IMG/VR virus record: IMGVR_UViG_3300031938_000002
Coordinates: 6,449-70,448 of that record
DNA from: a virus
Taxonomy: Duplodnaviria; Caudoviricetes
Length of the DNA stretch: 64,000 nucleotides
Direction: 5' to 3' (one strand)
The notes under the pieces were generated by a model. That model did not search any database and was not told where the DNA came from. It worked only from the letters and a program-made list of their open reading frames with translations. Positions 638 through 63,770 of the stretch are shown one piece after another. Every line of letters begins with the position of its first letter. Within the stretch, counting starts at the first letter, position 1. A program made the translations under genes and the position numbers.

Positions 638-678
638 CTGCGTTTCCTTCCGGTTGAAACGAGCGTTGCGGTTGTTGG

Positions 679-1218
679 TCACATGATGGACAGGACGAAG
701 TCGTGGTGCGGCTCCTCGAAGGTGAACCACTTGTACTGCAGGGCGGCGACCTGGGCGAACGGCGTACCGAACACGTTGAAGTCCAAGCCCCAGTGGTACT
801 TGTAGGCACCGGCCATGTCGCTGGGTACCGCTCCCAGGTGCAGGGCTTCGGCCTCGATGGCGGGCCAGTGCTCTTGGTAGGCCTGGTCGCAGTCGTAGTA
901 CTGCTTGGTGTGCTCACTGTCGTCCCAGCAGTACTCGATGGTCATGCCCAGCTTGGGCTCACCGCCGGCTGGCCAGTGGCACCAGAAGCGGAACAGCCCA
1001 CGCAGCGGTTGCAGGTCGTCCCACATCCTGTACAGCACGGCCTCGCGGTTGTCGATGAACTCCGTGTACAGGTCACGGTCGCTCTCGGACTTGGCGTAGG
1101 TCTCGCGCCCGTCGGCCCACGAGTGGGACACCTCGCCCTCGGAGCCGATCCAGAAGCCGATGGGCTTGATGTCCCTGTCGATCTGCTGCTGCGGAGTCAG
1201 GTCCTTGTCGAATGTCAT
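679..1218 (-). CDS. hypothetical protein (179 aa, Trp/Tyr-rich)
   Basis: ORF with phage-like codon usage; 4-bp overlap with the ligase stop. Confidence 0.7.
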   Translation of the reverse strand: MTFDKDLTPQQQIDRDIKPIGFWIGSEGEVSHSWADGRETYAKSESDRDLYTEFIDNREAVLYRMWDDLQPLRGLFRFWCHWPAGGEPKLGMTIEYCWDDSEHTKQYYDCDQAYQEHWPAIEAEALHLGAVPSDMAGAYKYHWGLDFNVFGTPFAQVAALQYKWFTFEEPHHDFVLSIM

Positions 1219-2117
1219 GAGCGGGGGAGTCCTTCCAGTTGGGTGATGGTGGCGTCGTGCATGGTCTGGTCGGACCGGACGCCCTTGAACACGGGCTGCC
1301 GAAGCACCCCGTCACGGGTCAGGCCAAGGCACTCGACCTCGACCACCGGCAGGTCCTCGCCAGAACGGGCGTTGTCGAACAGGGCCTTCATCTCCCGGAC
1401 GTCACGCTCCCGGAAGCCAGACCCGACACGGCCGACGAGGTGGACGCCCCCCTCTGCGTCCACCATCGCCAGCCGCATCGCCCCGAACTCGGCCCGTGAG
1501 CCGCTGCCCGGGTCGTACCCCACCCCGACACAGGTGACGGAGTGGGTGACCTTGTACTTCAGCCAGTTGCGGGACCGGCCAGCCGTGTACCGGGCGGTCT
1601 TGCGCTTGGCGATGACGCCCTCGCCGCCGGCCTTGGCGATGGCGGCGTAGATGCCGGGGTCCTCGGAGGTGAACGACGGCTTGTAGTGCGGGCTGAGCCA
1701 CTGGTCAGCCAGCAGGTCCAGCCGTGCCCGCCGGGTCTGGTAGGGCACGTCCCGCAGGTCCAGGTCGTCCAGCCACAGCAGGTCGAAGGCGACGAACGTG
1801 GCGGGCATCTGGGCGGCCATCGCCTCAGCCAGCCGGGCCTTGGTCACCTTGTCTCGTCGGGCAGCGTCTTGGAATCCCTGCCCTGCGATCACCTCGCCGT
1901 CGAGCACCATCGGTATGCCGGTGCGCACCGGGGCGACCTGCAGCTCGGGCCACGACTCGGTGCACACCCGTCCATGCCGGTTGACCAGCCGCAGCATCGT
2001 GCCGTCCCAGTGCAGCAGCATCCGCACACCGTCCAGCTTGGTGTCGAAAACGTGCGTTCCTGCCAGCGAGCTCAGCGGTACGTCACCGAGCTGGGCGAGC
2101 ATCGGCTCGATGTTCAT
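1215..2117 (-). CDS. ATP-dependent DNA ligase (LigC/LigD-ligase-like, 300 aa)
   Basis: MNIEPMLA start, motif I TKLDGVR, LDGEVI, FVAFDLLW, EGVIAK, WLKYK, OB domain with GRVGSGF and LRQPVF. Confidence 0.93.
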   Translation of the reverse strand: MNIEPMLAQLGDVPLSSLAGTHVFDTKLDGVRMLLHWDGTMLRLVNRHGRVCTESWPELQVAPVRTGIPMVLDGEVIAGQGFQDAARRDKVTKARLAEAMAAQMPATFVAFDLLWLDDLDLRDVPYQTRRARLDLLADQWLSPHYKPSFTSEDPGIYAAIAKAGGEGVIAKRKTARYTAGRSRNWLKYKVTHSVTCVGVGYDPGSGSRAEFGAMRLAMVDAEGGVHLVGRVGSGFRERDVREMKALFDNARSGEDLPVVEVECLGLTRDGVLRQPVFKGVRSDQTMHDATITQLEGLPRS

Positions 2118-2596
2118 GCTGACTCCTTCGCCAGGTCCGGCCCGGCCCACGGCGAGGCTCTGGGGTAGTCGGACAGGAACTTCTTGGTGCCGGGGTCGTA
2201 GTCGGCCTCGGGCACCAGGCGGTAGGTCTTCTCCTGCCACCTGTCCGTGCGGTTGGGGGCGAACATCACCCCGGTCGACCCGGCCGGGACGGCGGCGTGC
2301 CAGTCGCCCCAGGCGGACATCACCTGCGGGTCCCCGGAGGCGATGCGGGCCGCGATGGCCTTGTTCTCCTCGGTGGCCTTGCGTGCCGGCTCGGCGCACC
2401 TGTCGTGCAGTCGGATGCCACCCTCGGCGCGGTAGCACGACGTGCACAGGGCTGGCGCCTTGCAGTAGGCCAGCGAGTAGTTCGGGCCGTCCTGCGGGTA
2501 GGCCACCCTGTGGGGGCAGGTGCGCTTGCGCACCCCACCCGTGTTGCCGCACCTGTCGCAGGCCAGCGCGCCGTTCCTGCCGTAGCCGTACCCCAT
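2114..2596 (-). CDS. hypothetical Cys-rich (Zn-finger-like) protein
   Basis: CDRCG, CPH and CTSC motifs; translationally coupled between Ku and ligase. Confidence 0.7.
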   Translation of the reverse strand: MGYGYGRNGALACDRCGNTGGVRKRTCPHRVAYPQDGPNYSLAYCKAPALCTSCYRAEGGIRLHDRCAEPARKATEENKAIAARIASGDPQVMSAWGDWHAAVPAGSTGVMFAPNRTDRWQEKTYRLVPEADYDPGTKKFLSDYPRASPWAGPDLAKESA

Positions 2597-3453
2597 CAGG
2601 CAGCCTCCTTCTTGGTCTTGGCCTTGCGGGCCTTGGGCTTGCCGTCCTCGCCCACCGCAGCCAGCGACGCTGCCAGGGAGGCGGTGAAGTCTGCCACGGG
2701 GGCAGCCTCCTTCGTGCCGGACTTGGAGGTACTCAGGACGACCGTCTCCTCGGGGGACTTGGACGCCACCAGCTCCGCCATCTTGGTCTCGAACTCCGAC
2801 ACGTACACGGCCGGGTCGTAGTCCTTGGTGGTGCCGGCCACGAGCATGTCCATCTGGCTCTGGGTGAAGGCGTCCAGCAGGGTGGGCGCCGGCTGGGCCT
2901 CCACCTTGATGGCCTCGGTGCGGGCCACCTGCACCATGAGCATGGTGGTGCCGAACATCCGGAACTCATACAGGTTCGGCTTGCCCTGCGGCGACCACGT
3001 CCCCAGGAACGCGACCTCGGGGTGGCGGGCCATGGCGTCCACCAGGTGGTCCCACCCGATGCTGGGCTGGGCGGACAGCCAGTACACCGACCCGGAGGGG
3101 ATGGTGCTGGAACGGACGTTCTCGACCGGGTGGGGGGTCAGGGCGATCCTGTCCTTGGTGGCCTCGGCCGCCGCCTTCTTGATGGCCTCCCGCTCGCCGG
3201 CGTCGAGCAGGACACCGCCGCCGTCGCCGGTGGGGGCCACGGAGCGGAAGGTGGCCGGGTCACTGTTCTCGCAGTCCGGGACCGGGCAGACGCGGGTCTG
3301 CTTGATCTGGGTGGCGACGTGGGTGTGCTGTTCGTCCTTGCCGGTGCACACGATGGTGTTGCCCGCCTCCTTCTCGATGGCGGTGTAGACGTTCACCTGG
3401 GCGCTGGCGAGGGCCAGCGACACGGTGATCTTGGTGCGGTATGCGCGAGGCAT
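2596..3453 (-). CDS. ku: Ku-like DNA end-binding protein
   Basis: Colinear with bacterial Ku: N-terminal TKITVSLALASAQVNVYTA, Cys in RVC, YWL, DYDPAVYVSEFETKMAELVASK (cf. DFNPDRYHDTYQEQLQELI), VADFTASLAASL, basic tail. Confidence 0.85.
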   Translation of the reverse strand: MPRAYRTKITVSLALASAQVNVYTAIEKEAGNTIVCTGKDEQHTHVATQIKQTRVCPVPDCENSDPATFRSVAPTGDGGGVLLDAGEREAIKKAAAEATKDRIALTPHPVENVRSSTIPSGSVYWLSAQPSIGWDHLVDAMARHPEVAFLGTWSPQGKPNLYEFRMFGTTMLMVQVARTEAIKVEAQPAPTLLDAFTQSQMDMLVAGTTKDYDPAVYVSEFETKMAELVASKSPEETVVLSTSKSGTKEAAPVADFTASLAASLAAVGEDGKPKARKAKTKKEAA

Positions 3454-3464: not shown

Positions 3465-4625
3465 CTAGGAGGCGAATCGGACGGGCATCTGGATGATCCG
3501 GAGGCCCGGGGCGAGGTCGGACTCGAACCGCAGCGGCTTGGTGGGCTCGGTGGTGCAGATGCTCACCGTGCCGGCGGGCAAGGCCCGCAGGCAGTCGAGC
3601 AGGTAGTGGGGGTCGAGCCCGTACACGTTGCCCAGCCCCACGGCGTGGTGCGCCGGGACCGGGACGGAGCACACCTCCCCGTCGTCGGTGTTCACCTTCA
3701 CCGTGGCCGCCCCCTCCCACATGGCCAGCTTCACCGGCACGTTGCGCTCCACCGACGGCAGCACCTGACGCACCGCCTCGATCAGGGCGTCCCGGTCCAG
3801 GTCGGTGCGGTTGGTCTTGGGGGCCTCCACGATGGACTGCGTCCTCGGGAACTCGCCCTCGATCAGGCGGGTGGTCAGGGTGTACTGGCCGGCACGCACC
3901 GTCATGGTGCGCAGGGTCGGGTCGTAGGACAGCGACACCTGTCCCCGGCCCTTGATGAGCGGCAGGTACTGGTCGAAGTCCAGCGGCACCAGCATCTCCG
4001 GCCCCTCCCGGAAGTGACCGGAGGCGAAGCGGTACTCGGCCAGCCGGTACCTGTCGGTGGCGAGCAGGGTGATGTCGTTGTCGGTGGTCGCCACCTTCAC
4101 CGTGTTGAGGATGGGCAGCACCATGCTGCCCTTCTCCGCGGCGAACCGGGTCGCCTCCCACATCGCCAGCAGCGTCCCGCCGCCCACCGCGGCACGGAAC
4201 TCCGTGCTGGTGGTGTGGATGTCGGGGGTCTGCGGGTACTCCTCCGGCTCCGGGTGGATGCCCAGCGGCACCTGCCGGGGGCCGACGGTGGCAACGCCCG
4301 TTCTGCCGTCGGTGCGCACCGACACGCCCATCGCCAGCGCCTTGACGGACGTGCCGCCCGGCTTGACCGCTGCGGCCAACGTGGCGGCACGCACCAGGGT
4401 GCGGCCGTGGCCGGTCAGCGGAGCCTCCATGGCGATGGTGGTCTCGTAGTTGGTGGCCCAGATCAGGCCGGCGTCGGCGTCCAGGCACACGTACTGGAAG
4501 ATCGGGATGCCTCGCCCGTGGCGGGGCTTGGTGAGCTTCTCCAGTGCCTTGACCAGCGGGAGGAGGGCTCCCCTGGTGGTGGCGAAGCCGATGGGGGAGG
4601 TGGTGGTGCTGGGTGCGAGGCTCAT
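3465..4625 (-). CDS. dnaN: DNA polymerase III beta sliding clamp homolog
   Basis: ATNYE, PILNTV, LLATDRYRLA and RLIEGEFP motifs; 386 aa; AAGGAG RBS. Confidence 0.9.
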   Translation of the reverse strand: MSLAPSTTTSPIGFATTRGALLPLVKALEKLTKPRHGRGIPIFQYVCLDADAGLIWATNYETTIAMEAPLTGHGRTLVRAATLAAAVKPGGTSVKALAMGVSVRTDGRTGVATVGPRQVPLGIHPEPEEYPQTPDIHTTSTEFRAAVGGGTLLAMWEATRFAAEKGSMVLPILNTVKVATTDNDITLLATDRYRLAEYRFASGHFREGPEMLVPLDFDQYLPLIKGRGQVSLSYDPTLRTMTVRAGQYTLTTRLIEGEFPRTQSIVEAPKTNRTDLDRDALIEAVRQVLPSVERNVPVKLAMWEGAATVKVNTDDGEVCSVPVPAHHAVGLGNVYGLDPHYLLDCLRALPAGTVSICTTEPTKPLRFESDLAPGLRIIQMPVRFAS

Positions 4626-4729
4626 GGCCTCTCCTTCCTTCCTGTGAAACACGAAGCCCGCCCCCACTGTGGGGACGGGCTGGAAACGAACGTTGTTGCG
4701 TCAGTCGAAGTCGTCGGGGTGCTCGATCT

Positions 4730-5255: not shown

Positions 5256-5621
5256 CTAGTACTCGAAGTCGCACTCCTGGTTGAGGCAGTACCCGTACGG
5301 GTCGACGTCGCCGTCCATGCTGGCAGCGTTCTGGTAGCCGTCGAACAACGGCCACCCGCACTCGGGGCACTGGTTGCGGGGGTTCTCGCGCAGCAGCGCG
5401 GTGATGCGCTCACGTCCGTGGCCGTGGAAGCGCCAGACCCGCACGACGTGCACCAGGTCCGGGAAGGCCCTGTCGAGCACGTCGAGCTGGTCCTCGGTGG
5501 CGGCCATCATCGTGGCCACCAACAGGTTGGTGAACGGGTCGGCCTTCTTGTGCATGGCCTTGGACCACAAGGCCACCTCGGTCATGGGCAGTGGCTCAAC
5601 GTCCGTTGTGAGCGTCGTCAT
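5256..5621 (-). CDS. hypothetical protein with C-terminal Zn ribbon
   Basis: MTTLTTDVE start with GAGG RBS; CPECG...CLNQEC. Confidence 0.7.
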   Translation of the reverse strand: MTTLTTDVEPLPMTEVALWSKAMHKKADPFTNLLVATMMAATEDQLDVLDRAFPDLVHVVRVWRFHGHGRERITALLRENPRNQCPECGWPLFDGYQNAASMDGDVDPYGYCLNQECDFEY

Positions 5622-5631: not shown

Positions 5632-6699
5632 TCAGGCGTGGATGTAGGACAGCGACTGCGACACGTCGGCAATGCGCTGCCCGAGCCAAGCGGCCATGCC
5701 GACGTGCATGGCGTTGCCCAGCGCCTCACCACGGGCCGACTCCGAGATGCCCTCGGTGTGCCCGGTGGGGAACCCCTGCAGCCGCTCCCACTCCTCCAGG
5801 GTGAACGCCCGCACACGGCCGTCGGGGTGCAGCACCATGTGCTTCTGCCAGCCGGCGCCGCCCCAGTCCATGGAGGCCAGGGTGTTGGCGTGGGTGGCAA
5901 TCGGCCACGTCTCGTAGCCGCCCTCGGACAGCTTGGCGCGAGGGTTGGAGGACTTGCGGAAGATCACCTCTCCGCCAGGTCCTTCAGCGCTTGCAAGAGA
6001 CGCGGGTCCACCGCCTTGGCGGGTGCCGACGAGACGCGGGGCACGAGGTTGCGGGCCGTCTCCGAGGATGCCCAGCACTTGTGCTGCGGGGGTGGGGTCG
6101 GTCCCACGATGTGCGACCACCATGAGGCGGAGTCGCTTCTGGGGGCTGTGGTACCCGGCGGGGGTGACGAAGTCTCGCCCGTCCAGCACCCGGTAGGCCC
6201 CCACATACCCGAGGTCCCCCAAGCTTCGGGTGAGGGCGGCCAGGTCCCATCCGGTACGGTCCACTCCGTCACCACCCTTGGCAACGCTAACTCGGCCTGG
6301 GCTTCGCACGAGCCGGTCCACGTTCTCGATGACCACCCATCGGGGACGGGTGGAGTCGATGAGTCGAAGGTACTCGTTGAGGAGCCGGTAGAACTCCCAC
6401 CAGGTGCCGGACTGGTCTCCCTTGAGGAGTCCACGGCCACGAGCCTTGCCCTTGGAGATGTCCTCGCAGGGGAACCCTGCAATTGCGAGGTCAGGTTGGC
6501 CAACATCTGCGGCGACCACCCCATGGATGTCCCCCTTCCTGGGAACGTCAGGCCAGTGGCGCGCGAGCACCGTCTGGCAGTTGGTGTCCTTCTCGATGAA
6601 GACGGTGGGCCTGTAGAACAGGGAGCCGTCGGGGTTGCGGACCTGCTCGAAGCCGACCTCGAACCCACCGATGCCGGCGAAGGCCGACAGGTACCTCAC
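5632..6699 (-). CDS. C5 cytosine DNA methyltransferase
   Basis: Motif I FAGIGG, IV AGFPC, VI IENV, VIII QKRLRL, X ALGNAM. Confidence 0.93.
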   Translation of the reverse strand: MRYLSAFAGIGGFEVGFEQVRNPDGSLFYRPTVFIEKDTNCQTVLARHWPDVPRKGDIHGVVAADVGQPDLAIAGFPCEDISKGKARGRGLLKGDQSGTWWEFYRLLNEYLRLIDSTRPRWVVIENVDRLVRSPGRVSVAKGGDGVDRTGWDLAALTRSLGDLGYVGAYRVLDGRDFVTPAGYHSPQKRLRLMVVAHRGTDPTPAAQVLGILGDGPQPRAPRLVGTRQGGGPASLASAEGPGGEVIFRKSSNPRAKLSEGGYETWPIATHANTLASMDWGGAGWQKHMVLHPDGRVRAFTLEEWERLQGFPTGHTEGISESARGEALGNAMHVGMAAWLGQRIADVSQSLSYIHA

Positions 6700-6929
6700 C
6701 TCAGGTCACCCAGCCCGAGGTCGTGCAAACGCCCGTTGACGAAGTCCGCCACGATGGGTGGCAGGGCGTGGCCCGTCTCGTCACGGGTCACCAACAGCTC
6801 GGCTGCTGCGTCACACGCCTCGGCGTTGCGGATGTGCCCACTGGCCTGCCAGCGGGCCGCCTGCAAGCGCAGCGCGGCCACTCTGTCGGCGTTGGGGGCG
6901 ATGGTCACCTCACCCTTGACCAGGTACAT
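6696..6929 (-). CDS. hypothetical protein (77 aa)
   Basis: Coupled overlap with the MTase start; GGAG RBS. Confidence 0.6.
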   Translation of the reverse strand: MYLVKGEVTIAPNADRVAALRLQAARWQASGHIRNAEACDAAAELLVTRDETGHALPPIVADFVNGRLHDLGLGDLR

Positions 6930-8026: not shown

Positions 8027-8497
8027 TCAGCCGGCGTCCGGCAGGGCGCGGATGATGTGCTGGCCGGCGGGACGTGACTGGGCGAACGTGGTGGCGGCGG
8101 TGCGCCCGTGGATGAGGCTGACGTACTGGTCGCCCAGGAACGGCTCGTGGCGCCACACCTCGTACCAGACGTCGTCCCAGTTGGTCGTGGGCTCGACAGG
8201 CTGCGGCTCGACCACCTCGACCACCACCGGCTCGATGACCGGCGCGGCAACGCCCGTTTGCACGGCGTGGTGCTCGTAGGAGGACCGGGGCAGGGGCAGC
8301 CCGGGACGCCACATCTCGTACCTGGCGTCGAAGGTGCCCGTGGAGGGCACCGGGACGACGCGCGCGCTCGTCTGCGGCGCCGTCATCATCGTCAGGGCAC
8401 GGGCCAGCGCGTCAGCCTTGGGGGCGCTGGCCGTAGCCAGCACCCCCGGGCTGTACGTGCAGGCGCAGTGCTCCATCTCATGGGGGCACTTGCGCAT
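8027..8497 (-). CDS. hypothetical protein (about 156 aa)
   Basis: ORF in the leftward operon with typical codon usage. Confidence 0.6.
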   Translation of the reverse strand: MRKCPHEMEHCACTYSPGVLATASAPKADALARALTMMTAPQTSARVVPVPSTGTFDARYEMWRPGLPLPRSSYEHHAVQTGVAAPVIEPVVVEVVEPQPVEPTTNWDDVWYEVWRHEPFLGDQYVSLIHGRTAATTFAQSRPAGQHIIRALPDAG

Positions 8498-9094: not shown

Positions 9095-9354
9095 TCGCTG
9101 TCCCGCAACGGGCGTTTCACCTCGTTGACGCGCCCAGACTTGTGCCCGTGGGGCCATGTATTTTTGTGGCGCCGCTCGCCGGCATGTGCCGGGTCCTCGC
9201 GTGCTCCCCACCGTGGTGGGTGACCTCCCCACGGGCATCAAGCCTGTGGTCGTGCTCCGCCTCAGTGGCGGTGGTGTCACGGCTGCCCCTGTCACTGGTG
9301 CCGCACGCTTACGTTCTCGTGACTCGTCCCCCGTTGCGTCAGCATGGTCGGGGA

Positions 9355-9573
9355 TCACCTGGTGAATAGCCGCATCAGAAGGCTCGTGCCGTGGGTAGTG
9401 GTCCGGTTCGTCTGTGATCCACTGCCGGTTTGTACGTTGCCCACGGCTGGCGCTAACTGGCGTTCTCTGCAGTTACAGGCTGGAGCATGTTTCACTCCCC
9501 ATCGGGTTGGCCCGGACCGAGCGAAACGCTCGTTCCGGGTTGTGAAGTTGTCGAAGCCGCAGGGGCACGTCAC
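9355..9573 (-). CDS. possible small Cys/His protein (72 aa)
   Basis: CPCG...HAPACNC; weaker codon bias than neighbours. Confidence 0.35.
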   Translation of the reverse strand: MTCPCGFDNFTTRNERFARSGPTRWGVKHAPACNCRERQLAPAVGNVQTGSGSQTNRTTTHGTSLLMRLFTR

Positions 9574-10697: not shown

Positions 10698-10807
10698 GGG
10701 CTGGCAAGGGGGGGCGGCAACGGCCGTTTTGGGTCTGCCGATGTGCTGCCCCATCGGCAGGGCATGGGGCATACTGAGGGGGCGGGGCGGAGAGGCCGCC
10801 CCCACCC

Positions 10808-12948: not shown

Positions 12949-13094
12949 CGGTGGACAGCCGCAGAGCCCTGTGCCCCATCTGCCACCTGTCGATCCGGGT
13001 GGTGAACGGGCGTTTGGTGGACCACATGGTGGGGCCGCCGGTGTTCTTCATGCGCAAGGCCATCTGCGCCGGCTCCGGGCGCCATGCCCCGTAG
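12945..13094 (+). CDS. small Zn-finger protein (49 aa)
   Basis: CPICH...DH...CAGSG; GTGA overlap with upstream stop. Confidence 0.6.
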   Translation: MTVDSRRALCPICHLSIRVVNGRLVDHMVGPPVFFMRKAICAGSGRHAP

Positions 13095-17054: not shown

Positions 17055-17278
17055 CACGCCCAACACGTCTACCCCTACACTCCCCAGCCTTGGAAACGGA
17101 CGTTTCGACCACGTTAGCCGGGTCGCACATATGCCGCAATGGCACCCCAAAGACGTGGCTCCGGGGCGATTGTGGGCTAGTGTTCCGCCCATGGGTCACG
17201 CTGACCACGCTCCCGCGCGCCGCGGGAGGGTACCGGAAGAGGAGGCGTCATGGTCCAACACCCAAGCGGGGGTAATCC

Positions 17279-34756: not shown

Positions 34757-34786
34757 CAACGTTCGTTTCCCTCGCCAGGAGCAGCC

Positions 34787-52760: not shown

Positions 52761-54856
52761 GAACCACGTCAGCGCAGACCCAGGCTGTCTGGCAGAGCGG
52801 CGACTTCGTCGGCGGCAACCGGCCCATCGTGCGCGCCACCATCCAGCGCCTGTCCCTGTACAAGCGCTCCTTCGGCTCGCAGGTGTACACCTCCGTCCCG
52901 TTCGCGCAGAAGTCGAAGCCGTTGGAGCTGCCCAACATCAAGAGCGTCAAGTGGTCCCGTTCGGTCGATGGGGGAGTGGCCACCTGCACCCTGACCCTGT
53001 ACAACACCGAGCCGCTGCCGCTGGGCGCCTCCCCGGCCGCCGACCTGGACCGCCCCGGCTACTTCACCTACCAGCGCGGCAAGGCGTTCTACAGCCCCCG
53101 CTGGCACCACACCAAGACCGGCTGGCAGGACTGGATCGTCCCCGACCGGATCATCCGCACCTTCGAGGGCTACGGGTTCGACCCGGACGTGCCCCCCGAG
53201 CTGGACACCCACCTGTACCAGTCGGGCACCTGGCTCATTGACGACGTCGAGCTGGACCACGAGGGCTACATCACCATCGAGTGCCGCGACATCGGCCGGG
53301 TGCTGCTGGACCAGATCATGCTGCCCCCGGTGGTGCCGACCGCGTCCTACCCGCTGTACTTCGACACCTACCAGCAGGTGAACAACCCGGACATCGTCAC
53401 CACGACCGGCACCGGCTGGCACAAGCCCGCCTACGACACCAGCTCCAACGCCCCCTACATCGGGGTGGGCGGGGCGGTGCAAGGGCACGTCGGCACCGAC
53501 GCGTTCGACTCCAGCACCTCCTCGTACTGGCTGTCCATCGGCAACGCCGCCCCCGACGCCGGCTACTCCTTCGAGTACATCCAGGGCAAGTTCGCCAGCC
53601 AGAGCCTGTCCGCGGTGCGGGTGCGCACCTGGGGTGGGCCGTACCGGGCCTACATCAGCGTGTATGCCGGCGGGAAGTGGCAGGGCAAGCGCACGGTGCC
53701 CTACGACCCGAACAACCCGGTGTCCGCCCCCAACGGCGCCAACATCCCGTACGTGTACGCGTTCGACGCGGACCGTGAATCGTCCACGTCCTACTCGCTG
53801 CCCAAGCCCATCGAGGGCGCCACCAAGGTACGGGTGTCGTTCACCAACCTCACCAACTCCGGCATCGGCCCCTACAAGTACCGGGCCGGGGTGCGCACCC
53901 TGGAAATCTCCAGCCAGACCACCACCACCAAGGACGGCGGCACCCACACCGAGCCCAAGACCAGCCCGCCCGGCTACGGCGACTTCACCGACATCGTCAA
54001 GATTCTGTTGGCGTACGGCGGGTTCTTCTGGCCGTCCGACGCTGCCGCGTTCATCAAGCTCTCCGACGGAACGCTCGTTACCACCCCGGCCGCCACGAAC
54101 GACCCGGCGCTGCGTGGCGGCCGGGTGTGGGGCGACTTCGAGCAGACCGGCACCGCCGGGGTCGCGCCGCTAGGGGTGGACGTGTGGGACAAGAAGCCGC
54201 TCATGGACGGCATCAACTACGTGCGAGACATGGTCGGCTTCATCTTCTACGTTGACGAGCTGGGCGGGGCGGTATTCCGGTCCCCGAACATCTGGTCGGT
54301 CGGCAACTACATCGGCCTGGGGGCCGCCGAGGCCGGGCGGACAACGGACTTTGTCATCATTGACGAGACCCAGACCCTGATGGGCCTGGGTGCCAAGCTG
54401 TCGTCCCGCTCGATCCGGGAACGCATCTTCGTGGGCAACCTCGCCGGCCAGGTCGCGGGCATGTCCGCCGGTCACAACCCCTACCCGTCCGGGCTGCGCC
54501 GCGTCGGCGGCTGGACCGACCAGTCCTTCAAGACGGCCAAGGAGTGCAAGATCATGGCCGACCTGATCGGCCTGCGCCAACTGTTCACCTACCGCACCGA
54601 CAAGGTGAAGATTCCCGGCAACCCGGCCATCCAGATTGACGACCAGGTCAAGATCTTCGAGCGGATCACCGAGGAGGGGTACCTGCACTACGTGGAGTCC
54701 ATCTCCATGGAGTGGAACGCCGAGGACGGCCGGTACACCTACGACCTGGGCACCCACTGGCTGGGGGCGACACCGTTCAGCGACTGGACGTTCGACCCGG
54801 CCACCCTCAGCGCGGAGACGGTGGCGTACCTGAAGGCTCTCGGGAAGGTGCCCTGA
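52757..54856 (+). CDS. baseplate hub (Tal-like) protein with discoidin-like insert
   Basis: VKWSRSVDG..CTLTLYN, GTWLIDDV, IECRD, GNPAIQIDDQV; follows the Dit-like gene. Confidence 0.7.
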   Translation: MRTTSAQTQAVWQSGDFVGGNRPIVRATIQRLSLYKRSFGSQVYTSVPFAQKSKPLELPNIKSVKWSRSVDGGVATCTLTLYNTEPLPLGASPAADLDRPGYFTYQRGKAFYSPRWHHTKTGWQDWIVPDRIIRTFEGYGFDPDVPPELDTHLYQSGTWLIDDVELDHEGYITIECRDIGRVLLDQIMLPPVVPTASYPLYFDTYQQVNNPDIVTTTGTGWHKPAYDTSSNAPYIGVGGAVQGHVGTDAFDSSTSSYWLSIGNAAPDAGYSFEYIQGKFASQSLSAVRVRTWGGPYRAYISVYAGGKWQGKRTVPYDPNNPVSAPNGANIPYVYAFDADRESSTSYSLPKPIEGATKVRVSFTNLTNSGIGPYKYRAGVRTLEISSQTTTTKDGGTHTEPKTSPPGYGDFTDIVKILLAYGGFFWPSDAAAFIKLSDGTLVTTPAATNDPALRGGRVWGDFEQTGTAGVAPLGVDVWDKKPLMDGINYVRDMVGFIFYVDELGGAVFRSPNIWSVGNYIGLGAAEAGRTTDFVIIDETQTLMGLGAKLSSRSIRERIFVGNLAGQVAGMSAGHNPYPSGLRRVGGWTDQSFKTAKECKIMADLIGLRQLFTYRTDKVKIPGNPAIQIDDQVKIFERITEEGYLHYVESISMEWNAEDGRYTYDLGTHWLGATPFSDWTFDPATLSAETVAYLKALGKVP

Positions 54857-55344: not shown

Positions 55345-58055
55345 TGCTGGGCTCCTGGGACGACCCGATCATCCTCGACGGCGCGTCGGGGTCCTACACG
55401 TTCGACTTCACCAGCGACATGTACAACGGGATCACCCCCAACGGGTACATGTACTTCAAGGTGAGCCTGGCGGACACCAGGACCGCCTACACCTTCACCA
55501 TCCCCAGCGACGGCACCCAGCTCACCGGCGTCTACCCCGGCCCCATTCAGGACGACGGCTTCCGGTTTGTGACCAGCTCCAATGTGGTGCGCAACTACCC
55601 CAACTACGCCGACACGGCGTGGTGGATCAAGCTGCGGCCGTGGAACTTCGCCACCTACACCGTGTCGTGGACGACCTCCACCACCCCGGACCGGCCGTAC
55701 ACGTTCGACCTGGCCCAGACGGTCGCCCTGGCCGCCGGCTCGGTGACGTACGACAACGAGGCCCCCGACCTGCGGTACCGCTGGTACCGCATCCCCATCC
55801 CCGACGGCGCCACCTACACGTTCACCTCCACCGAGGCGGACTGGTTCATCGAGGCGTACGACAAGGACCAGAACTACATCGACTACGGCGACAAGTCCGA
55901 GGGCCGCCCGCTGACGGTGACCGGCCAGGCGGGCAGCGACATCTGGGTGAAGGTGTACCCGTTCATCCAGCCACCGGAAACGGCCGTTCTCAACTGGGAG
56001 GCGCAGGCCCCGCCGCCGTACGTCGTCCCCAACAACGACTTCGCCACCCCCACCGTCATCAACGCCCGCGTGGCCGGCAACGTCAGCTACGACAACACCG
56101 GCGCCACCCAGGGCGCCGCGTCCAGCCAGCACACCGACGGGGCACGGTCCATCTGGTTCGAGCCAACCCCACCGGCGGCCACCTCCTACGTGCGTTTCGA
56201 GGCCACCCCGGGCATCACCGACCCCTCCGGCGCTCCCCGCGCCGACCTGTACGAGTGGGACCCCACCAGCTCCTACTGGAACAGCGTCAAGATGTCCGGC
56301 ACCGCCAACGCGGTCGCGGTGGGGCGGATGTCACCGGACAAGCAGTACCGGCTCGCGCTGTACTTCCCTGACGGCGCCCAGAACGTCTGGGACAGCACCG
56401 GCCAGCTCGGGTGGACGCTCAGCCCGGTGCCGACCAACTCCTCCCAGGACGGCGCCACCGTCGCCACCCAGAGCACCACCATCACCCCGGCGGCCGGCGG
56501 CGCCCAAGAGACCCAGTGGTTCACCGTGACGGCGCCCATCGACGGCGGCCTGTTCATCGTCCTGGGCTCCGAGAGCGGCCCGCCGACAGGGGCGACCGGG
56601 GCGGCCTGGTTGCTGCCGGAGACGGTCCCCACCTTCATCCCGTGGCGCAGCGCCAGCAACCCGACCGCGGCGTACGTCCGTGAGGTGCATGCCGGCGACA
56701 CCGTCCGGGTGCGGGTGGACCTGTCCGGCGGCGCCACGGTCAACCTGCGCTGGGGCGTCAGCGGCCAGGTGGTCTGGGGGGAGTGGCAAGACGCCAGCTT
56801 CCTGCGCGCCGGCACCGACACGGGCAGCCCGCTCGGGCAGCGCGCCTGGTTCGAGCAGTTCTACCCCTACGCGATCACCACCGAACTCAACGCCCTTGGG
56901 GACCAGGGCAGCGCCCGGTGGACCGCCTCCTGCGAAACCGCGGAGATGGAGTACACCGACCCCAGCGACCACGACTTCGCTGGCGCCCGCGCCCTGGTCG
57001 ACTCGGGGCAGGGGCAGAGGGCCGACCTGCCGCGCCCGCCGGGCAACGTCAACATGCTGGGTGGCGGCACCCCCACCACGTACTCCCTGAACGTGGACGA
57101 CCTGAGCTGGTCCGCCGTCACCGGGATTGGGTACGGCGGTCGGATGCAGCAAGGCCCCATCTACTGGACTGAGGGCGCCGGGATCGCCGGTGGCTCCTTC
57201 TCCCAGAACGAGGTTCACGTCGCCAACGCCGCATACGAGGTCTCCTTCTCCACTCGTGAGTACGCCGACGACTGGGGGCAGTGGGACGCGGACCGCCTGC
57301 CGGTCATCAAGCAGGGCACCCTCAACGGCCTGGTCACCCCCGAGGAGCTTGCCTCCGGCGGGGAAACCCTCATCAAGAGCCGGCTCAGGCAGCGCGCCGT
57401 CGAATGGCGGGACGGTGTCGGCACCAAGCAGGTGAACCTGTACCACCAGTACGGTGTCTCCTGGACCCGGTCCTCGGGCTCAAGCTGGGTCGGCACCGTG
57501 TCGCACGCGCCGGTGGACCCGTTCAGCCTGCAGGTGCGCCGCAGCTCGGCCACCCTGGCCGAGTTGGAGACGGGATGGCTGTCCCGGGGCGAGGTCGCGG
57601 CCATGCCCATCGAGTACGAGTACCAGGTGCCCGCTGACGGGGTCACCCAGAAGGGCTCGGAGCCGTTCACCGCGCAGTGGCAGGAATGGGCGCTGGACAC
57701 CGCGAACATCGAGTCGCTGCTGCCAGCCCTCGGCGGCGGTCCGTGGCAGATGACGTTCCTGGTCACCACCTCCCTGTTCGCCAACAACGACCCCATCGAC
57801 ACCTCGCGCATCCTGCAACGCTCCTACGAGCTGAACGGTGGCGGTATCGGCTCTCAGCCGTTCTGGGACCTGTCCGGCGCCGCGTTGATCTACTTCTCCC
57901 CGGCCGCGGTCTACCCGGACTACCGGATCGGCACCTACGTGGAGAACCTGGACCCGATTGACCCGGGCGCGGACCTGTACCCGGGCAAGTTCCTCAACCC
58001 CACCTCGCGGCTGGATGGTGCGCCGAACGGGTTGGACGTGAACTTCTCCGGCTGA
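55344..58055 (+). CDS. minor tail / receptor-binding protein (903 aa)
   Basis: Repeated beta-sandwich-like units (YFKVSL, WYRIPI, PNNDF..P, SIWF, QWFTVT). Confidence 0.7.
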   Translation: MLGSWDDPIILDGASGSYTFDFTSDMYNGITPNGYMYFKVSLADTRTAYTFTIPSDGTQLTGVYPGPIQDDGFRFVTSSNVVRNYPNYADTAWWIKLRPWNFATYTVSWTTSTTPDRPYTFDLAQTVALAAGSVTYDNEAPDLRYRWYRIPIPDGATYTFTSTEADWFIEAYDKDQNYIDYGDKSEGRPLTVTGQAGSDIWVKVYPFIQPPETAVLNWEAQAPPPYVVPNNDFATPTVINARVAGNVSYDNTGATQGAASSQHTDGARSIWFEPTPPAATSYVRFEATPGITDPSGAPRADLYEWDPTSSYWNSVKMSGTANAVAVGRMSPDKQYRLALYFPDGAQNVWDSTGQLGWTLSPVPTNSSQDGATVATQSTTITPAAGGAQETQWFTVTAPIDGGLFIVLGSESGPPTGATGAAWLLPETVPTFIPWRSASNPTAAYVREVHAGDTVRVRVDLSGGATVNLRWGVSGQVVWGEWQDASFLRAGTDTGSPLGQRAWFEQFYPYAITTELNALGDQGSARWTASCETAEMEYTDPSDHDFAGARALVDSGQGQRADLPRPPGNVNMLGGGTPTTYSLNVDDLSWSAVTGIGYGGRMQQGPIYWTEGAGIAGGSFSQNEVHVANAAYEVSFSTREYADDWGQWDADRLPVIKQGTLNGLVTPEELASGGETLIKSRLRQRAVEWRDGVGTKQVNLYHQYGVSWTRSSGSSWVGTVSHAPVDPFSLQVRRSSATLAELETGWLSRGEVAAMPIEYEYQVPADGVTQKGSEPFTAQWQEWALDTANIESLLPALGGGPWQMTFLVTTSLFANNDPIDTSRILQRSYELNGGGIGSQPFWDLSGAALIYFSPAAVYPDYRIGTYVENLDPIDPGADLYPGKFLNPTSRLDGAPNGLDVNFSG

Positions 58056-58071: not shown

Positions 58072-58638
58072 GTGGGCTACCTGGACATCGCCGCTGCCGA
58101 AGTCGGCTATGTCGAGACCCCCGACAACATCACCAAGTACTGGGCGGACCTGGCGCCGGGGTTGCAGGGCCAGCCGTGGTGCTTCGCGTTCGTGTCGTGG
58201 TGCCTGAAGAAGGACGGCGACCTGAGCGCCATCGGCGGCTCCCCGTTGTACTACTGCCCAACGGGCGTTGCCATCGCCCGCCAGCGGGGTGAGTGGTTCA
58301 GCGAGCCGGTCGCTGGGGCGCTGGCCTTGTACAGCTTCGGGCAGAACGCGGCTGTGCACGTCGAGTTCGTGGAGTCCGTCACCCCCAGCGGCATCATCGC
58401 CATTGGTGGCAACACGTCCTCCGGCCTGGGAGGGTCCCAGACCAACGGTGGCGGGGTGTATCGGCGCTCACGTTCCAGCGGCTTCATGGGGTTCTGGCAC
58501 ATTGCCGGCTCGGGTGGCTCGGGGACGTACACGCCAGGTCGGGCGGCCCGACCCGGGACAGTCGGAGGCGTGCCGGTGCAGACCATCAAGGGGTCAGTGG
58601 CAGGCGACCCTGCCGTGCGCTTCGTTCGCGCCCGCTGA
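58072..58638 (+). CDS. CHAP-domain endolysin without a recognisable binding domain
   Basis: QPWCFAFVSW, HVEFVE, IGGNTS; first gene of the lysis cassette. Confidence 0.88.
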   Translation: MGYLDIAAAEVGYVETPDNITKYWADLAPGLQGQPWCFAFVSWCLKKDGDLSAIGGSPLYYCPTGVAIARQRGEWFSEPVAGALALYSFGQNAAVHVEFVESVTPSGIIAIGGNTSSGLGGSQTNGGGVYRRSRSSGFMGFWHIAGSGGSGTYTPGRAARPGTVGGVPVQTIKGSVAGDPAVRFVRAR

Positions 58639-58650: not shown

Positions 58651-59098
58651 GTGCATGGGAACCAGCCTGCAGATTCATCCACGGGTGGCCCAGTGGGTGA
58701 TCCAGGCCCTCGCGCGGCTCCTGGCCACGTTCGCACTCGTGCAGGGGGTCGGCATCTTCCTGGGCGGCCCGCAGCGTTGGCAGTCGCCGGGTCTGGCGGT
58801 GGCGATGATGGTGCCGGGCGCGCCGGCCACCTGGGGCGTCATCCTGGCGGTGCTGGGGGCGATCACCCTGCTGGGAACCGTCAAGGCTCGCCACCGCCTG
58901 GTCGCCAACGGCCTGATGGGCATCGCCACCTGGTGCACGTTCTTCACCTTCAGCCTGCTGCTGACCCTGCTGCGCGACGCCCGGGTCAGCACAACGGGCG
59001 TTCCCACCTACCTGTTCGTCACCGTCACCTGCTGCTGCGTCGCCATCGCATACCGGCAATCCGTGGCCTACCAGCGCCAGCTTCGCAGGGTCACATGA
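58651..59098 (+). CDS. membrane protein (4 TM), lysis cassette
   Basis: Four hydrophobic segments. Confidence 0.7.
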
Positions 59099-59529: not shown

Positions 59530-59909
59530 TGATGGATACCGCGGTCATCATTCAACTGCTGGGTTCCGCCACGGTCGCGGCCGTCATCGGCGCCGTCATC
59601 AACGGGATCGTCAATCGCAAGAAGCTGGGTGCGGAGGCCACCGAAATCATCACCAAGGCGGCCTCCGGGGTGGTCGCGGACCTGCGGGCCGACAACGAGC
59701 GTTTGCGCCACCGCCTCACTCAGCTCGAGGAGACCCAGGACGAGTGGGAGCTGGAGCGCGAGGAGTGGAAGCGGGTCCTGCAGGTGCACGCCGCCTGGGA
59801 CTTGATGGCCACCGCCGCGGTTAAGGCTGCCATCCCGCCGATTGACCTGCCGCCACCACCGCCGTTGACCCCGCCCGTGGTGAAGCGGCGTCATCACGTT
59901 TCCGAGTAG
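59529..59909 (+). CDS. membrane-anchored coiled-coil protein
   Basis: N-terminal TM, then LRADNERLRHRLTQLEE. Confidence 0.7.
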   Translation: MMDTAVIIQLLGSATVAAVIGAVINGIVNRKKLGAEATEIITKAASGVVADLRADNERLRHRLTQLEETQDEWELEREEWKRVLQVHAAWDLMATAAVKAAIPPIDLPPPPPLTPPVVKRRHHVSE

Positions 59910-60337: not shown

Positions 60338-60705
60338 TCCTGTGTGCGCGGACTGCGCCGTGCACGAGACGTGACAGTACCACCCATCCGGACGCAAACG
60401 GGCGTTGCTGCGGGTCTCAATCGGTTGCCATCGGTTGCCAAACCATGCGTCAACGCATATCCCCGAACGGCTTGCCGGCTGTCAGACCCGTGGGCTAACG
60501 TCTGCACCCAGTCCACACAAGTGGAACCAAGAACAACCGCATAGGTCAGGCGACTGACCGAACCGAAGCCGTGGCAAGAGCCAGGCTAGGGATCGTTCCC
60601 CGGCAGGTCCGTGGGAAGTAGGCGATCAATCGAACCGCCAGAGGGCAACCTCTGACACTGGTTCGGTTGGTCGCCTTTTTCTATGCCCCGTCCGGAAGCG
60701 GTGGC

Positions 60706-61572
60706 ATGCAAGTCAGACAGTCAGACCTGGCGTCGTACGCCCGGTGTGCACAGCAGAAGAAGCTGGGTGACCTAGCGAAGGCCGGCGCGCTCGACAAGCG
60801 CCCCGAGCAGCTCTCGATGACCGCCTACGGGTCGGTGCTGCACTACGCGATCCACGTTCTGGAGAAGTTGCGGTTCGCCGGCCGCGAGGACGCGCTGGCC
60901 AAGGCCCACTCCACGTTCGAGTACTACTGGGACCCGGACAACATCCACCAGGTCTGCGAGCCCGTCACCATCTGGGCGGCCCGACAGACCTACCTGGGGC
61001 TGCAGCGCAAGGGCCACCAGACCATCGACCTGTACGCCAAGCACCTGGACGGCGACCAGTCGAAACTGCTGGGGCTGGAGGTCGAGTTCAACCTGCCGTT
61101 CGAGCTGGACGGCGAGCAGCACATCTTCCACGGCACCATGGACCGGCTGTCGCTGCGCAAGACCAGCGGCTCCACGTACGTCAACGTGGAGGACTTCAAG
61201 TCTGGCCAGGACTACAAGCACCTGCGCTGGAACGCGCAGTTCTCCGGCTACTGCTGGGCCACCACGCAACGAGCGTTCTGGGACCCGTGGGGTGACGACG
61301 CGGAGAGCCTGCACACCCGGTTCTCCACCCTGGCCCGGCGCGGCACCTGGATCAGCCTGCGCAACGGCGTGGACCGCCAGGACGCCGGCTGGCGCGGTCC
61401 GCAGGACTACGCCCGGTTCTGGGCGTGCGTGCGCGAGTACGTCAAGGCCGTCAAGGCGGACATCTACCCGCTGTCGCTGAAGGGCGACGTGTGCGAGTAC
61501 TGCCCGTTCCGCGAAGGCATCTGCGGGGGAGTGGCTGTGCCCGACCCCGACCACGGACGGCCCGCCGCATGA
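60706..61572 (+). CDS. PD-(D/E)XK exonuclease, RecB/AddB/Cas4-like
   Basis: GLEVEF, GTMDRL, VEDFKSG, QFSGY; Fe-S-type cysteines ARC and CEYCPFREGIC. Confidence 0.88.
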   Translation: MQVRQSDLASYARCAQQKKLGDLAKAGALDKRPEQLSMTAYGSVLHYAIHVLEKLRFAGREDALAKAHSTFEYYWDPDNIHQVCEPVTIWAARQTYLGLQRKGHQTIDLYAKHLDGDQSKLLGLEVEFNLPFELDGEQHIFHGTMDRLSLRKTSGSTYVNVEDFKSGQDYKHLRWNAQFSGYCWATTQRAFWDPWGDDAESLHTRFSTLARRGTWISLRNGVDRQDAGWRGPQDYARFWACVREYVKAVKADIYPLSLKGDVCEYCPFREGICGGVAVPDPDHGRPAA

Positions 61573-61919: not shown

Positions 61920-62194
61920 GCTTTGCCGCGTACACCATCCTCGTCGTCGCCACCACCTGGCTGGCCACCCGGGCCTGGTACCTGTTCGACGTCTACCGGG
62001 TCAGCCGGGGCATGCACCGCGAGGTCCGGCACCACTGCGACGACCCGGCCAACTGCCCGGCCGAGGTGGTGCTGGCCGACCTGCAGGCCACCTACTCCAA
62101 GGCGAAGGCGGAGCTGGGCCTGACGCTGGGCGTCTTTGCCCTCGCCGTCGTCGCGGCAACGTCCGTTGCCATCGTCGCCTGGGGGACGCCGTGA
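61916..62194 (+). CDS. membrane protein (92 aa)
   Basis: Two TM segments; ATGA overlap. Confidence 0.6.
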   Translation: MSFAAYTILVVATTWLATRAWYLFDVYRVSRGMHREVRHHCDDPANCPAEVVLADLQATYSKAKAELGLTLGVFALAVVAATSVAIVAWGTP

Positions 62195-62391
62195 AGCGCC
62201 TGGGCCAGGCCGCGCTGGCGTTCGACCTGGGTGTGCTGACCGGGTTCGCCCTGGCGATGGCGTGGCTCGACGTGCGCGGCAAGAAGCCGCCGCCCCCGCC
62301 GCCGCCGGCTCGCGCTCCGGAACCGTTCTGGGCTGTCCGGCCCGATGAGTCGATCCCCCCTTTCACCATCAACACAGGAGATTCCGCGTGA
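62191..62391 (+). CDS. small membrane protein (66 aa)
   Basis: One TM plus a poly-Pro stretch. Confidence 0.55.
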   Translation: MKRLGQAALAFDLGVLTGFALAMAWLDVRGKKPPPPPPPARAPEPFWAVRPDESIPPFTINTGDSA

Positions 62392-63770
62392 CCCTCGTCA
62401 TCCGCACCACCGGCCTGGAGGACTACCTCGACAGCGGCACTGGCCGCATCAAGGCCCTCATCATGGGAGCCCCCGGCTCCGGCAAGACCCGCTCCTCCTC
62501 GTACTGGCCCAAGCCGCTGCTGGCCGACTGTGAGGACGGCCGCATGTCCGTGGCGGACCGGCACATCCCGTACGCCGCCATCACCAGCACCGCCGACATG
62601 AAGGCGCTGCTGGACATGGCCGAGGCGGAGGGGAAGAAGCCCAAGGACCAGCGCCGGTTCGAGACCCTCGTGGTGGACACCCTGGACGCCTACCAGCGCA
62701 TCGTCATCCAGGACTACCTGCGCCGGGCGAAGAAGGCGTCCATGTCGGGCTGGCAGGACTGGGGCCACCTCGAAGCGGAGATGAACGAGCTGATCGGCCG
62801 GCTCAACGGGCTGCCGATGAACGTGGTCATCAACCTGCACGTCAAGGACACCAAGGTCGGCGGCGACGACGACGGTGACGGCGGCTACCTGGTGAAGTCC
62901 CCGAAGCTGAAGGGCGACCTGAAGGACCAGATCGCCGCCGAGTTTGACCTGGTCGGGTACATGGAGACCGGCTGGGAAGCCATTGACGGCAAGCGCACCC
63001 TGGCTCGCTACGTGCAGTGGGAGCCCACCCCGGACAAGCCCATCCTGAAGGACCGCTCAGGGCGGCTGCCCAAGCGCACCTCCGTCACGTTCACCGAGCG
63101 GGACTACCTGGGGTTGCTGGAGCCGTTGCGCGAGGCCCTGGAGGCCCTGCAGGCGTCGTCGGTGCTGGACACCCTGGAGACCGAGGAGCCTGTCACCCCC
63201 GAGCCTGTGCAGAAGGGCGGGCCGGTAGGAACTGGCACCAAGTCGGCGCCAGTCAAGAAGGCTGCGACCAAGAAGGCCGAACCGCCCAAGGCGGCCCCGC
63301 CGGCCAAGCCCGCAGTGCCCGCGACCACCGCTCCGGTGCCCGCGGCCAAGGCCCCGGCCCCGCACGAGGACCCCATCACCGAGGGTGAGGCCGTCCACAA
63401 CGTCAAGACCATCCTGGGCGGCGAGGTCATCGACCCGACCACCGGCGAGCCCGTGGAAACGTCCGTTGACGCGCCCTCCCCTGCGGAGGCGCCCACTCAG
63501 GTCCTGGAGTTCGAGGCCGAAGGGGCGGCATCAGAGCCCACGCCGTCGCTCGTCGTCGCATGCGGCAGTCCTCGCACCGAAGGGGCCACCCCCAAGGCCC
63601 AGGGCTGCGGCACCGACCTGCACCTGCAGATCGAGGACGGCCGGGTCGCTGGCTGCACCTCACCCGAGGGGCAGATGCCCGACCTCATCCAGATCGCCGG
63701 GATGAAGACCAACACGTTCCTGTGCAACCACTGCTACGGGACCTACCGCAACGCATCGAAGAAGAACTAG
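62388..63770 (+). CDS. Sak4-like (AAA_24) recombination ATPase with a long C-terminal extension
   Basis: IMGAPGSGKT, LADCEDG, TLVVDTLD, WQDWG, INLHVK, FDLVGYM, LKDRSG. Confidence 0.85.
   Translation: MTLVIRTTGLEDYLDSGTGRIKALIMGAPGSGKTRSSSYWPKPLLADCEDGRMSVADRHIPYAAITSTADMKALLDMAEAEGKKPKDQRRFETLVVDTLDAYQRIVIQDYLRRAKKASMSGWQDWGHLEAEMNELIGRLNGLPMNVVINLHVKDTKVGGDDDGDGGYLVKSPKLKGDLKDQIAAEFDLVGYMETGWEAIDGKRTLARYVQWEPTPDKPILKDRSGRLPKRTSVTFTERDYLGLLEPLREALEALQASSVLDTLETEEPVTPEPVQKGGPVGTGTKSAPVKKAATKKAEPPKAAPPAKPAVPATTAPVPAAKAPAPHEDPITEGEAVHNVKTILGGEVIDPTTGEPVETSVDAPSPAEAPTQVLEFEAEGAASEPTPSLVVACGSPRTEGATPKAQGCGTDLHLQIEDGRVAGCTSPEGQMPDLIQIAGMKTNTFLCNHCYGTYRNASKKN

Follow-up and report, generated by a model that had tools for sequence, protein, structure and literature searches.

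An exact spaced palindrome, AACG-NN-CGTT, repeated through the genes of an uncultured soil phage as a candidate operator word

Why does a phage genome repeat one short spaced palindrome dozens of times, mostly inside its own genes, and what might read it? The question is raised by a stretch of 64,000 nucleotides (the window), comprising bases 6449-70448 of the 70,448-base IMG/VR virus record IMGVR_UViG_3300031938_000002, which has a guanine-plus-cytosine (GC) content of 68% and is estimated to be 71% complete. The source is an uncultured soil actinobacterial phage, temperate as judged from its integrase and from one integrated relative. The stretch is present in four soil metagenomes, whose contigs hold no strain variation at the motif sites, and no RNA dataset is among the listed holders. 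Neither near-identical nor distant DNA relatives were found among isolated phages; the best protein match there is a 40% terminase match in Caudovirales GX15bay, where 50 kb contain a single site. No paper naming AACG-NN-CGTT in any phage was found.

The motif (AACGNNCGTT) occurs in 49 exact copies in the window and in 55 copies in the whole 70.4-kb record; every one of the 49 starts listed in a first-pass annotation of the window was an exact match. Dinucleotide shuffles of the window leave 0.65 +/- 0.76 copies, with a largest count of 3, and the reversed, non-complemented control word occurs once in the record. When all 4-Nk-4 palindromes (k = 0-8) were counted, AACG-NN-CGTT stood alone with 55 copies against 1.4 expected from its half-sites, and the next-best palindromes were GC-rich words at about twice their expectation. 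The same half-sites at other spacings (k = 0, 1 and 3-12), a comparison proposed in that annotation, gave just 0-4 copies. The 24 one-mismatch variants have 0-2 copies each save AACGNNCGTC, which has 6 and is one synonymous step away from the commonest coding form of the motif. By mismatch class (perfect, one, two and next), the counts are 55, 25, 129 and 1172, compared to 18, 19, 156 and 1212 under synonymous shuffling that keeps the 17 non-coding copies unmoved. The 8 motif bases are invariant, 15 of the 16 possible spacer dinucleotides occur, as had been stated, and complementary spacers are about equally frequent (GG 7 and CC 7, GA 6 and TC 5). Base preferences in the flanks are weak but symmetric. 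Because the enrichment is confined to the exact word and one spacer length, the signal consists of 8 exactly specified bases split by a spacer of 2 free ones. A role as an RNA hairpin was rejected on reasoning: a 4-bp stem with a 2-nt loop cannot be stable, and both orientations of the word are equivalent.

The 98 genes of the record were called by a codon model trained on long genes; their starts are approximate. With 90% of the DNA coding, 38 sites are intragenic and 14 intergenic, and the remaining 3 are on the edges of genes. Most copies are thus intragenic, as first described, at about 69% instead of three quarters. The excess survives codon-preserving shuffles, which had been suggested as a check: the 38 intragenic copies compare to 1.24 (maximum 5 in 300 trials) after synonymous codons were shuffled within genes and to 0.28 after codon order was shuffled. 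All three reading frames occur, again as first described, but very unevenly, with 27 sites as nnA-ACG-nnC-GTT, 9 as AAC-Gnn-CGT-Tnn and 2 in other form. To write the commonest form, a codon ending in A and the valine codon GTT are required; the former make up 3.6% of all codons and the latter 4.6% of those for valine. Motif copies hold 27 of the approximately 76 GTT valine codons of the genome, so about one third of them exist only for the motif. Within genes, the position of the sites is roughly uniform. These counts support the view that the motif is a signal selected on the DNA itself, at the expense of preferred codons.

Whether the excess belongs to the phage or to its cell can be seen on a single contig. 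A large-terminase profile search found a relative within a 622-kb contig of an uncultured Actinomycetota metagenome-assembled genome (G005). This prophage has 48 sites between positions 17,983 and 64,008 (46 kb), with an integrase at its right border, and the adjoining DNA of the same GC has 0 sites in 18 kb to the left and 2 in 76 kb to the right. Another host contig of about 1 Mb has 12 sites, and outside the prophage the motif count of the assembled genome is about equal to that of the control word. About 50 background sites are carried by the host in all; most of those sampled lie inside ordinary genes, and one is part of a longer palindrome that probably falls outside coding sequence. The density of the site is therefore 80-100 times higher in phage DNA than in the DNA of the host. 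Since a dense prophage adjoins host DNA at background level, the excess belongs to the phage and not to its cell, and the lack of excess in host DNA indicates that selection keeps the word as a phage-specific DNA signal. Host-wide sequence bias is ruled out by the host parts at control level, and equal enrichment in the host chromosome, named in the first-pass annotation as a possible refutation, was not found. In the prophage itself, 41 of 48 sites are intragenic compared to 1.7 after synonymous shuffling, and the one-mismatch forms total 14.

As side observations, the prophage (about 17.9-64.8 kb of CAVQDA010000005.1, 47 kb) has all genes on the same strand except the integrase and has no recognisable replication genes or methylase, and its borders can be told from the motif with a precision of a few hundred bases. 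Tape-measure sites recur in the similar peptide context xTLVG, at 42123 and 43029 in the window and at 40402-44694 in the G005 contig. The latter follow each other at intervals of about 700 bp, suggesting that the site is carried by repeats within the tape-measure gene.

Terminase searches of IMG/VR, metagenomes and genomes yielded about 60 loci. Two relatives are used repeatedly below: REL, 44 kb in two overlapping IMG/VR contigs with 60% terminase identity, and L034, the closest relative, of 3.6 kb. The motif is the most enriched spaced palindrome in approximately 20 terminase relatives, at 0.3-1.1 per kb and at GC contents from 49% to 69%, and this spread argues against a reader fixed to one host. 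It is absent from approximately 16 relatives, including a 74-kb phage contig of 69% GC and 52% terminase identity. Such motif-free sister phages indicate that there is no general enrichment among phages, another outcome that would have spoken against a specific signal. On a quick terminase tree, the branching of which is provisional, the window phage lies in an all-positive clade of 17 rows and the sister clade is mixed; in a deeper clade the G005 prophage is joined by a genome that lacks the motif, and no member of the outgroup clade has it. Motif presence must have changed state at least 3-5 times on this provisional tree.

Within genes, the sites turn over rapidly. Between the window and REL, 0 of 10 alignable intragenic sites are shared in either direction, and 0 of the 2 window sites in the region aligned with L034 are shared, with 87.5% identity in the terminase gene. 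Conservation in related phages, which had been put forward as a test, was thus not found at intragenic positions. The origin of one site can be read from its codons. At 27201 the window has CAA-ACG-GTC-GTT (Gln-Thr-Val-Val), where L034 has CAG-ACC-GTG-GTG and L036 has CAG-ACC-GTC-GTC. As the relatives encode the same residues without the motif, the site came about through three synonymous changes, of which two produced rare codons. Judged from these alignments, it arose on the window phage's own branch after the split from L034. It is the clearest sign of what may be directional selection for the word, or possibly of some other directional process. The use of codons otherwise avoided, noticed in the first reading of the window, is borne out by this synonymous origin and by the codon shuffles.

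Between genes, a different layout can be observed. In the window phage the intergenic copies are approximately 3-fold over-represented per base; 9 of 14 lie 20-100 bp ahead of a start, and several directly follow a stop codon and adjoin a terminator-like hairpin. The statement that intergenic copies sit just upstream of starts therefore applies to these nine, and others are farther away (274 bp for 17095 and 300 bp for 60397). In REL, 11 of 18 sites are intergenic, 29-154 bp ahead of gene starts, and four site pairs are 35-36 or 64-65 bp apart, within GTCTCAACGNNCGTTGAGAC. The core in REL is embedded in a longer palindrome, roughly GTCTC-AACGNNCGTT-GAGAC, and one of the pairs stands between a sigma-70-family gene and a divergent small zinc-ribbon gene; L036 has GCC-AACGNNCGTT-GGC-like flanks. 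The window phage, the G005 prophage and REL, three lineages with terminase identities of only 51-60%, all have a site at two intergenic positions, one ahead of g66 and one ahead of g71 or their homologues. In none of the three does the capsid operon between these positions contain a site, an absence that would fit avoidance of rare codons in highly expressed genes. A promoter word shared near the REL sites, GAAGTCCT, was not associated with the sites in the window.

Four sites cluster at 12385-12653 ahead of an operon, with the closest spacings in the window (30 and 38 bp). Gaps shorter than 300 bp number 4 compared to 11.1 expected, and three of these are in this cluster. The longest site-free gap, 7 kb, is in the tail genes after 43029. 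The coefficient of variation of the gaps is 0.83 compared to 0.97 expected (P about 0.1), and that of the G005 prophage is 0.74 (P = 0.018). Where under-dispersion was proposed as a check, short gaps are indeed scarce in the window, but evenness is only moderate. The spacing pattern is suggestive of selection for coverage. Just before the three-site group of this cluster and right after g30, the stretch 12280-12330 has long C and G runs that form a GC-rich inverted repeat, which had at first been taken for a genome end.

The explanation that we favour, at a probability of roughly 45%, is that AACG-NN-CGTT is the operator of a two-fold symmetric DNA-binding protein of the phage lineage, and that action on the whole genome is the likely reason for its density. 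It is based on the symmetry and free spacer of the word, its persistence in genomes of differing GC content, its phage specificity and the operator-like sites of relatives. A site for a dimeric protein had already been proposed in the first-pass annotation; two-fold symmetry and a free spacer fit a dimeric reader, and a TetR-type regulator is known to read this core (PMC6651687). We infer that a protein reads the word, that the phage encodes this protein, and what its binding does. The simplest history is one in which an operator-type site stood at operon boundaries and its core was later multiplied inside genes in some lineages. The older layout would be that of a core inside longer palindromes between operons, often paired, like the operators of a global phage regulator. 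The bare 8-base core would then have been multiplied through coding sequence, separately in the window phage and in the distant prophage relative, by synonymous or conservative changes and up to about one site per kb. The reader would repress or roadblock transcription through the prophage; alternatively, it may load a protein that covers or gathers phage DNA. Also grown from an operator, but doubtful though possible, would be an 8-base 'self' word, by the density of which a lineage-encoded protein may discriminate self from host and silence, coat, gather or protect DNA accordingly.

Several results weigh against the operator explanation, most of them from the search for a reader. All non-structural window proteins were compared by iterative profile searches with 32 genomes or loci. 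Only g49 and g44 represent non-structural families common to the two dense genomes and absent in motif-free relatives. The g49 family (a 70-residue zinc ribbon with RExG) is found in 9 positives and in 0 of 16 others and is the sole positives-only family, but g49 is acidic and is an unlikely reader of double-stranded DNA; g44, rejected as a candidate, has no recognisable DNA-binding fold. The LexA-type domain of g55, a reader suggested at first, does not track the motif: five relatives without the motif have it, and no copy was found in the 44 kb of REL, which bears the motif. Its presumed recognition-helix residues also differ between the window and the G005 prophage, where the core is identical. 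The ParB-like module is found in only 4 motif-positive genomes, and gene co-occurrence as a whole is confounded by shared ancestry and by the 10-kb flanks to which these comparisons are limited. Finally, the sharp drop from perfect to one-mismatch copies is more typical of restriction-type nucleases or methylases than of regulators. The 17-bp repeats of Cluster O mycobacteriophages do show the same drop, with almost no one-mismatch forms (PMC4351075).

No TetR-family protein was seen among the window genes scanned. As markers of the motif, g60 (small terminase-like) and g59 were discarded, for they occur in motif-free relatives too, and the ligase, Ku and clamp genes have no counterpart in the G005 prophage. 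With regard to the zinc-ribbon family itself, its members have 60-95 residues with CPxCG...CxxC and an RExG ahead of the ribbon that is often repeated after it; they occur in positives only and include g49 (Table 1), L011:1802-2023, L016:975-1154 and others.

An unlikely alternative is that the sites are targets of a sequence-specific enzyme (a nickase, nuclease, recombination-initiating or modification enzyme) that serves replication, recombination or chemical marking. All-or-none recognition over 8 bases with a free spacer resembles type II sequences, each site contains two CpGs, and the window genome has a C5-methylase together with recombination genes (RuvC-like, PD-(D/E)XK and Sak4-like). 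Rapid site turnover and a fairly even spread also accord with it. However, neither a homologue of the methylase g19 nor any methylase domain was found in the complete and equally dense G005 prophage, so the methylation-linked mark that had been suggested receives no support; the target of g19 could not be inferred from solved homologues. 5-Methylcytosine would tend to erode CpG sites rather than build them, and restriction pressure produces the opposite of enrichment. The paired sites ahead of operons and within longer palindromes in relatives have a regulatory layout, and no candidate nuclease is common to all positive genomes.

In a specific form of the operator explanation, itself quite unlikely, g46 would use the sites, together with g45 and g47, as loading points from which to spread or to bridge, so that a spacing of approximately 1 kb would serve to coat or condense the genome. 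The N-terminal domain of g46 is of ParB/Srx type (DGNHR) and is followed by an apparent helix-turn-helix (HTH), read by eye. The site spacing is of the order of the distances over which ParB is generally known to spread. The ParB candidate named in the first-pass annotation does co-occur with the motif in one sub-clade: g45 and g46 are present in the motif-positive L051, L058 and L071 and missing from L047 and L053, sisters that lack the motif but have the flanking genes in common with them. Cluster O phages likewise combine ParB-like genes, Ku and genome-wide palindromes (PMC4351075). Against this, the module is absent from the complete G005 prophage with its 48 sites and from the 44 kb of REL, the profile matches of g46 are weak, and a motif for binding cytidine triphosphate was not recognised. 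No ParA family was found among the window genes scanned, which are not every gene, and the canonical parS (GTTTCACGTGAAAC core) has 0 matches at up to 3 mismatches.

Distinctly improbable, too, is a host regulator or nucleoid protein as the reader, by which the phage would tie its operons to host physiology while high copy numbers soak up the factor. No convincing phage reader emerged among the proteins compared, TetR-type regulators with this core exist in other bacteria, switches of host could account for the patchy presence of the motif on the terminase tree, and the host has its own background sites, including the one in a longer palindrome. But the persistence of the motif from 49% to 69% GC presumably spans very different hosts, and the host count equals that of the control word, with most host copies intragenic. 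A neutral drive, in which biased repair or gene conversion makes the word without function, as was once proposed for the cyanobacterial palindrome HIP1, would accommodate the quick appearance of sites by several nearby substitutions and the unconserved intragenic positions, but is very improbable given a host chromosome that replicates in the same cell without excess, motif-free sister phages of similar GC, intergenic positions kept across deep splits and one-mismatch precursors that are not depleted.

The sites and selected genes of the window are listed in Table 1.

Table 1. Motif sites and genes of interest in the window, counted from its first base
Feature	Positions	Strand
Site, first codons of g10 (minus-strand gene)	658..667	
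Site in ATP-dependent ligase gene g12, frame AAC-Gnn-CGT-Tnn	1364..1373	
Site in ligase gene g12, frame nnA-ACG-nnC-GTT	2049..2058	
Site in Ku-like gene g14	3111..3120	
Site in sliding-clamp-like gene g15	4293..4302	
Intergenic site, 60 bp ahead of g15 start, after stop codon, then hairpin	4685..4694	
Site in g18	5598..5607	
Site in g20	6728..6737	
Site in g26	8249..8258	
Intergenic site, 100 bp ahead of g27 start, adjoins hairpin	9107..9116	
Intergenic site within 1.8-kb poorly coding stretch	9525..9534	
Intergenic site, 80 bp ahead of g30 start	10719..10728	
Three intergenic sites (12385, 12423, 12453), 190-258 bp ahead of g31, densest cluster of the window	12385..12462	
Site overlapping g31 start	12644..12653	
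Site in g32	13005..13014	
Site in g33	13374..13383	
Intergenic site between divergent g38 and g39, 45 and 49 bp from starts	15501..15510	
Intergenic site, 274 bp ahead of g45	17095..17104	
Site in tyrosine integrase gene g48	19924..19933	
Site at 3' end (stop codon) of HTH_17 gene g53	22125..22134	
Site in g56	22971..22980	
Site in g59; not at aligned place in closest relative L034	24643..24652	
Site in large terminase g61, CAA-ACG-GTC-GTT (QTVV)	27201..27210	
Site in portal-like gene g63	28232..28241	
Site in g64	30436..30445	
Intergenic site, 72 bp ahead of g66 (head-assembly operon); position also occupied in G005 prophage and REL	31502..31511	
Intergenic site, 20 bp ahead of g71; position also occupied in G005 prophage and REL	34758..34767	
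Site in g73	36138..36147	
Site in g74	36979..36988	
Site in g75	37440..37449	
Intergenic site right after g76 stop codon, then terminator-like hairpin; 67 bp ahead of g77	39588..39597	
Site across g77 stop codon	40538..40547	
Site in tape-measure gene g79 (QTLVG)	42123..42132	
Site in tape-measure gene g79 (GTLVG)	43029..43038	
Site in g83, 1670-aa tail gene	50014..50023	
Site in g83	50218..50227	
Site in g83	51163..51172	
Site in g84	52451..52460	
Site in g85	54070..54079	
Site in g87	55979..55988	
Site in CHAP-domain lysin gene g88	58260..58269	
Site in g89	58993..59002	
Site in g91	59694..59703	
Intergenic site, 300 bp ahead of g93	60397..60406	
Site in PD-(D/E)XK nuclease gene g93	61268..61277	
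Site in g95	62158..62167	
Site in AAA_24 (Sak4-like) gene g97	63458..63467	
g49, 70-aa zinc-ribbon protein with RExG motifs	21034..21246	-
g45-g47 module: DUF4258-containing g45, ParB/Srx-like g46, g47; site-free	17378..19418	+
g55, LexA-type winged-helix domain alone	22589..22822	+
g19, C5 cytosine DNA methyltransferase	5632..6699	-

Host-like DNA genes are found at 1215-4625, 14322-14543 and 16067-16279; they encode an ATP-dependent ligase, Ku-like and sliding-clamp-like proteins, a BldC-family regulator whose score exceeds the NCBIfam cut-off, and the dimerisation domain of Lsr2, from which the DNA-binding part is missing.

Two further observations concern other phages. A distant relative, G002 (IMG/VR 3300050821_001948, 130 kb, 50.5% GC), has 21 sites compared to 2 of the control; 14 of the 21 have the spacer GA/TC (AACGGACGTT), and from this preference the word there may be one of 10 bases that is no longer symmetric. 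An IMG/VR scan for pairs of sites returned mostly unrelated phenomena. Another highly iterated palindrome, ACGGCCGT, occurs 91 times in 40 kb, compared to about 1 expected from base composition, in unrelated phages of approximately 56% GC (L229-L232, IMG/VR 3300037515_000543 and 3300028315_000509; G015, 3300033417_000002). It is often seen as GGAAACGGCCGTTTCC, including 33 copies of AACGGCCGTT, and these phages have no detectable proteins in common with the window phage.

Genome-wide repeated palindromes such as the Cluster O repeats and HIP1 have been unexplained for years. To these the present case adds an internal control in the form of a single contig that holds both prophage and host DNA; a series of relatives that ranges from operator-like sites between genes to a dense grid within them; and sister phages that differ in having or lacking the word, among which the gene of the reader can be sought. 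If that reader is found, it would mean that a phage can address its whole genome by site density, not by a long unique sequence, and would show how strongly such a need overrides codon choice.

How does the word compare with known systems? HIP1 of cyanobacteria (GCGATCGC) is an exact palindrome, 15-300 times over-represented at about one per gene, found inside and between genes and kept by selection, with function unknown (PMC5861425). It is chromosomal and its sites are conserved, whereas here the host is at background and 0 of 10 intragenic sites are shared. Chi is asymmetric, is part of the host RecBCD system and is frequent in the host chromosome too. In Chi-rich lambdoid phages, a short word is enriched in phage genomes by selection (PMC12315714). 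Unlike Chi, the present word is symmetric and not in excess in the host, and recombination genes are encoded by the phage itself.

The stoperators of L5-type phages are asymmetric and oriented with transcription. These Cluster A phages have many repressor sites that are thought to block transcription through the prophage (PMC4351075). Many site copies across a temperate phage genome are common to both systems, but here the site is a perfect palindrome with no orientation signal, and no repressor has been matched to it. The site of the Thermus TetR-type regulator TTHA0973, CNAACGNNCGTTNG, has the same core (PMC6651687), and the identical core and symmetry indicate that an HTH dimer can read it; those operators, in contrast, are one or two promoter sites in a bacterium. 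The Gram-positive/actinobacterial LexA SOS box (GAAC-N4-GTTC) was rejected: of 110 half-sites, 29 have G at position -1, fewer than the frequency of G in the genome would give. The same 10-bp word forms tandem arrays of 11-bp period (S-AACGNNCGTT) in six unrelated IMG/VR proviruses or contigs of 44-69% GC (L233-L238). In 6 of 6 the arrays are inside DUF1376 (YdaU-like) genes, and they look like origin iterons in an initiator gene. They are confined to one tandem locus per genome, whereas the window phage and its relatives are without tandem arrays; the DUF1376 initiator gave no match in G000, G002, G007, G011 or G015.

The closest described case is the Cluster O 17-bp repeat (TGTTCGGNNNCCGAACA), with 34 invariant copies, a variable spacer and an unknown function (PMC4351075). 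Both have invariant inverted half-sites around a variable spacer, in more than 30 copies over an actinophage genome of approximately 70 kb. The word itself is another one, as TGTTCGGNNNCCGAACA has 0 matches in the window at up to 2 mismatches, and 8 bases are specified here, not 14. A further difference is that the window phage is temperate. While about one third or less of the Cluster O repeats are intragenic, about 69% of copies are so in the window phage. Its intragenic positions turn over from one relative to another; Cluster O repeats, mostly intergenic or near gene 5' ends, largely keep their positions across related genomes.

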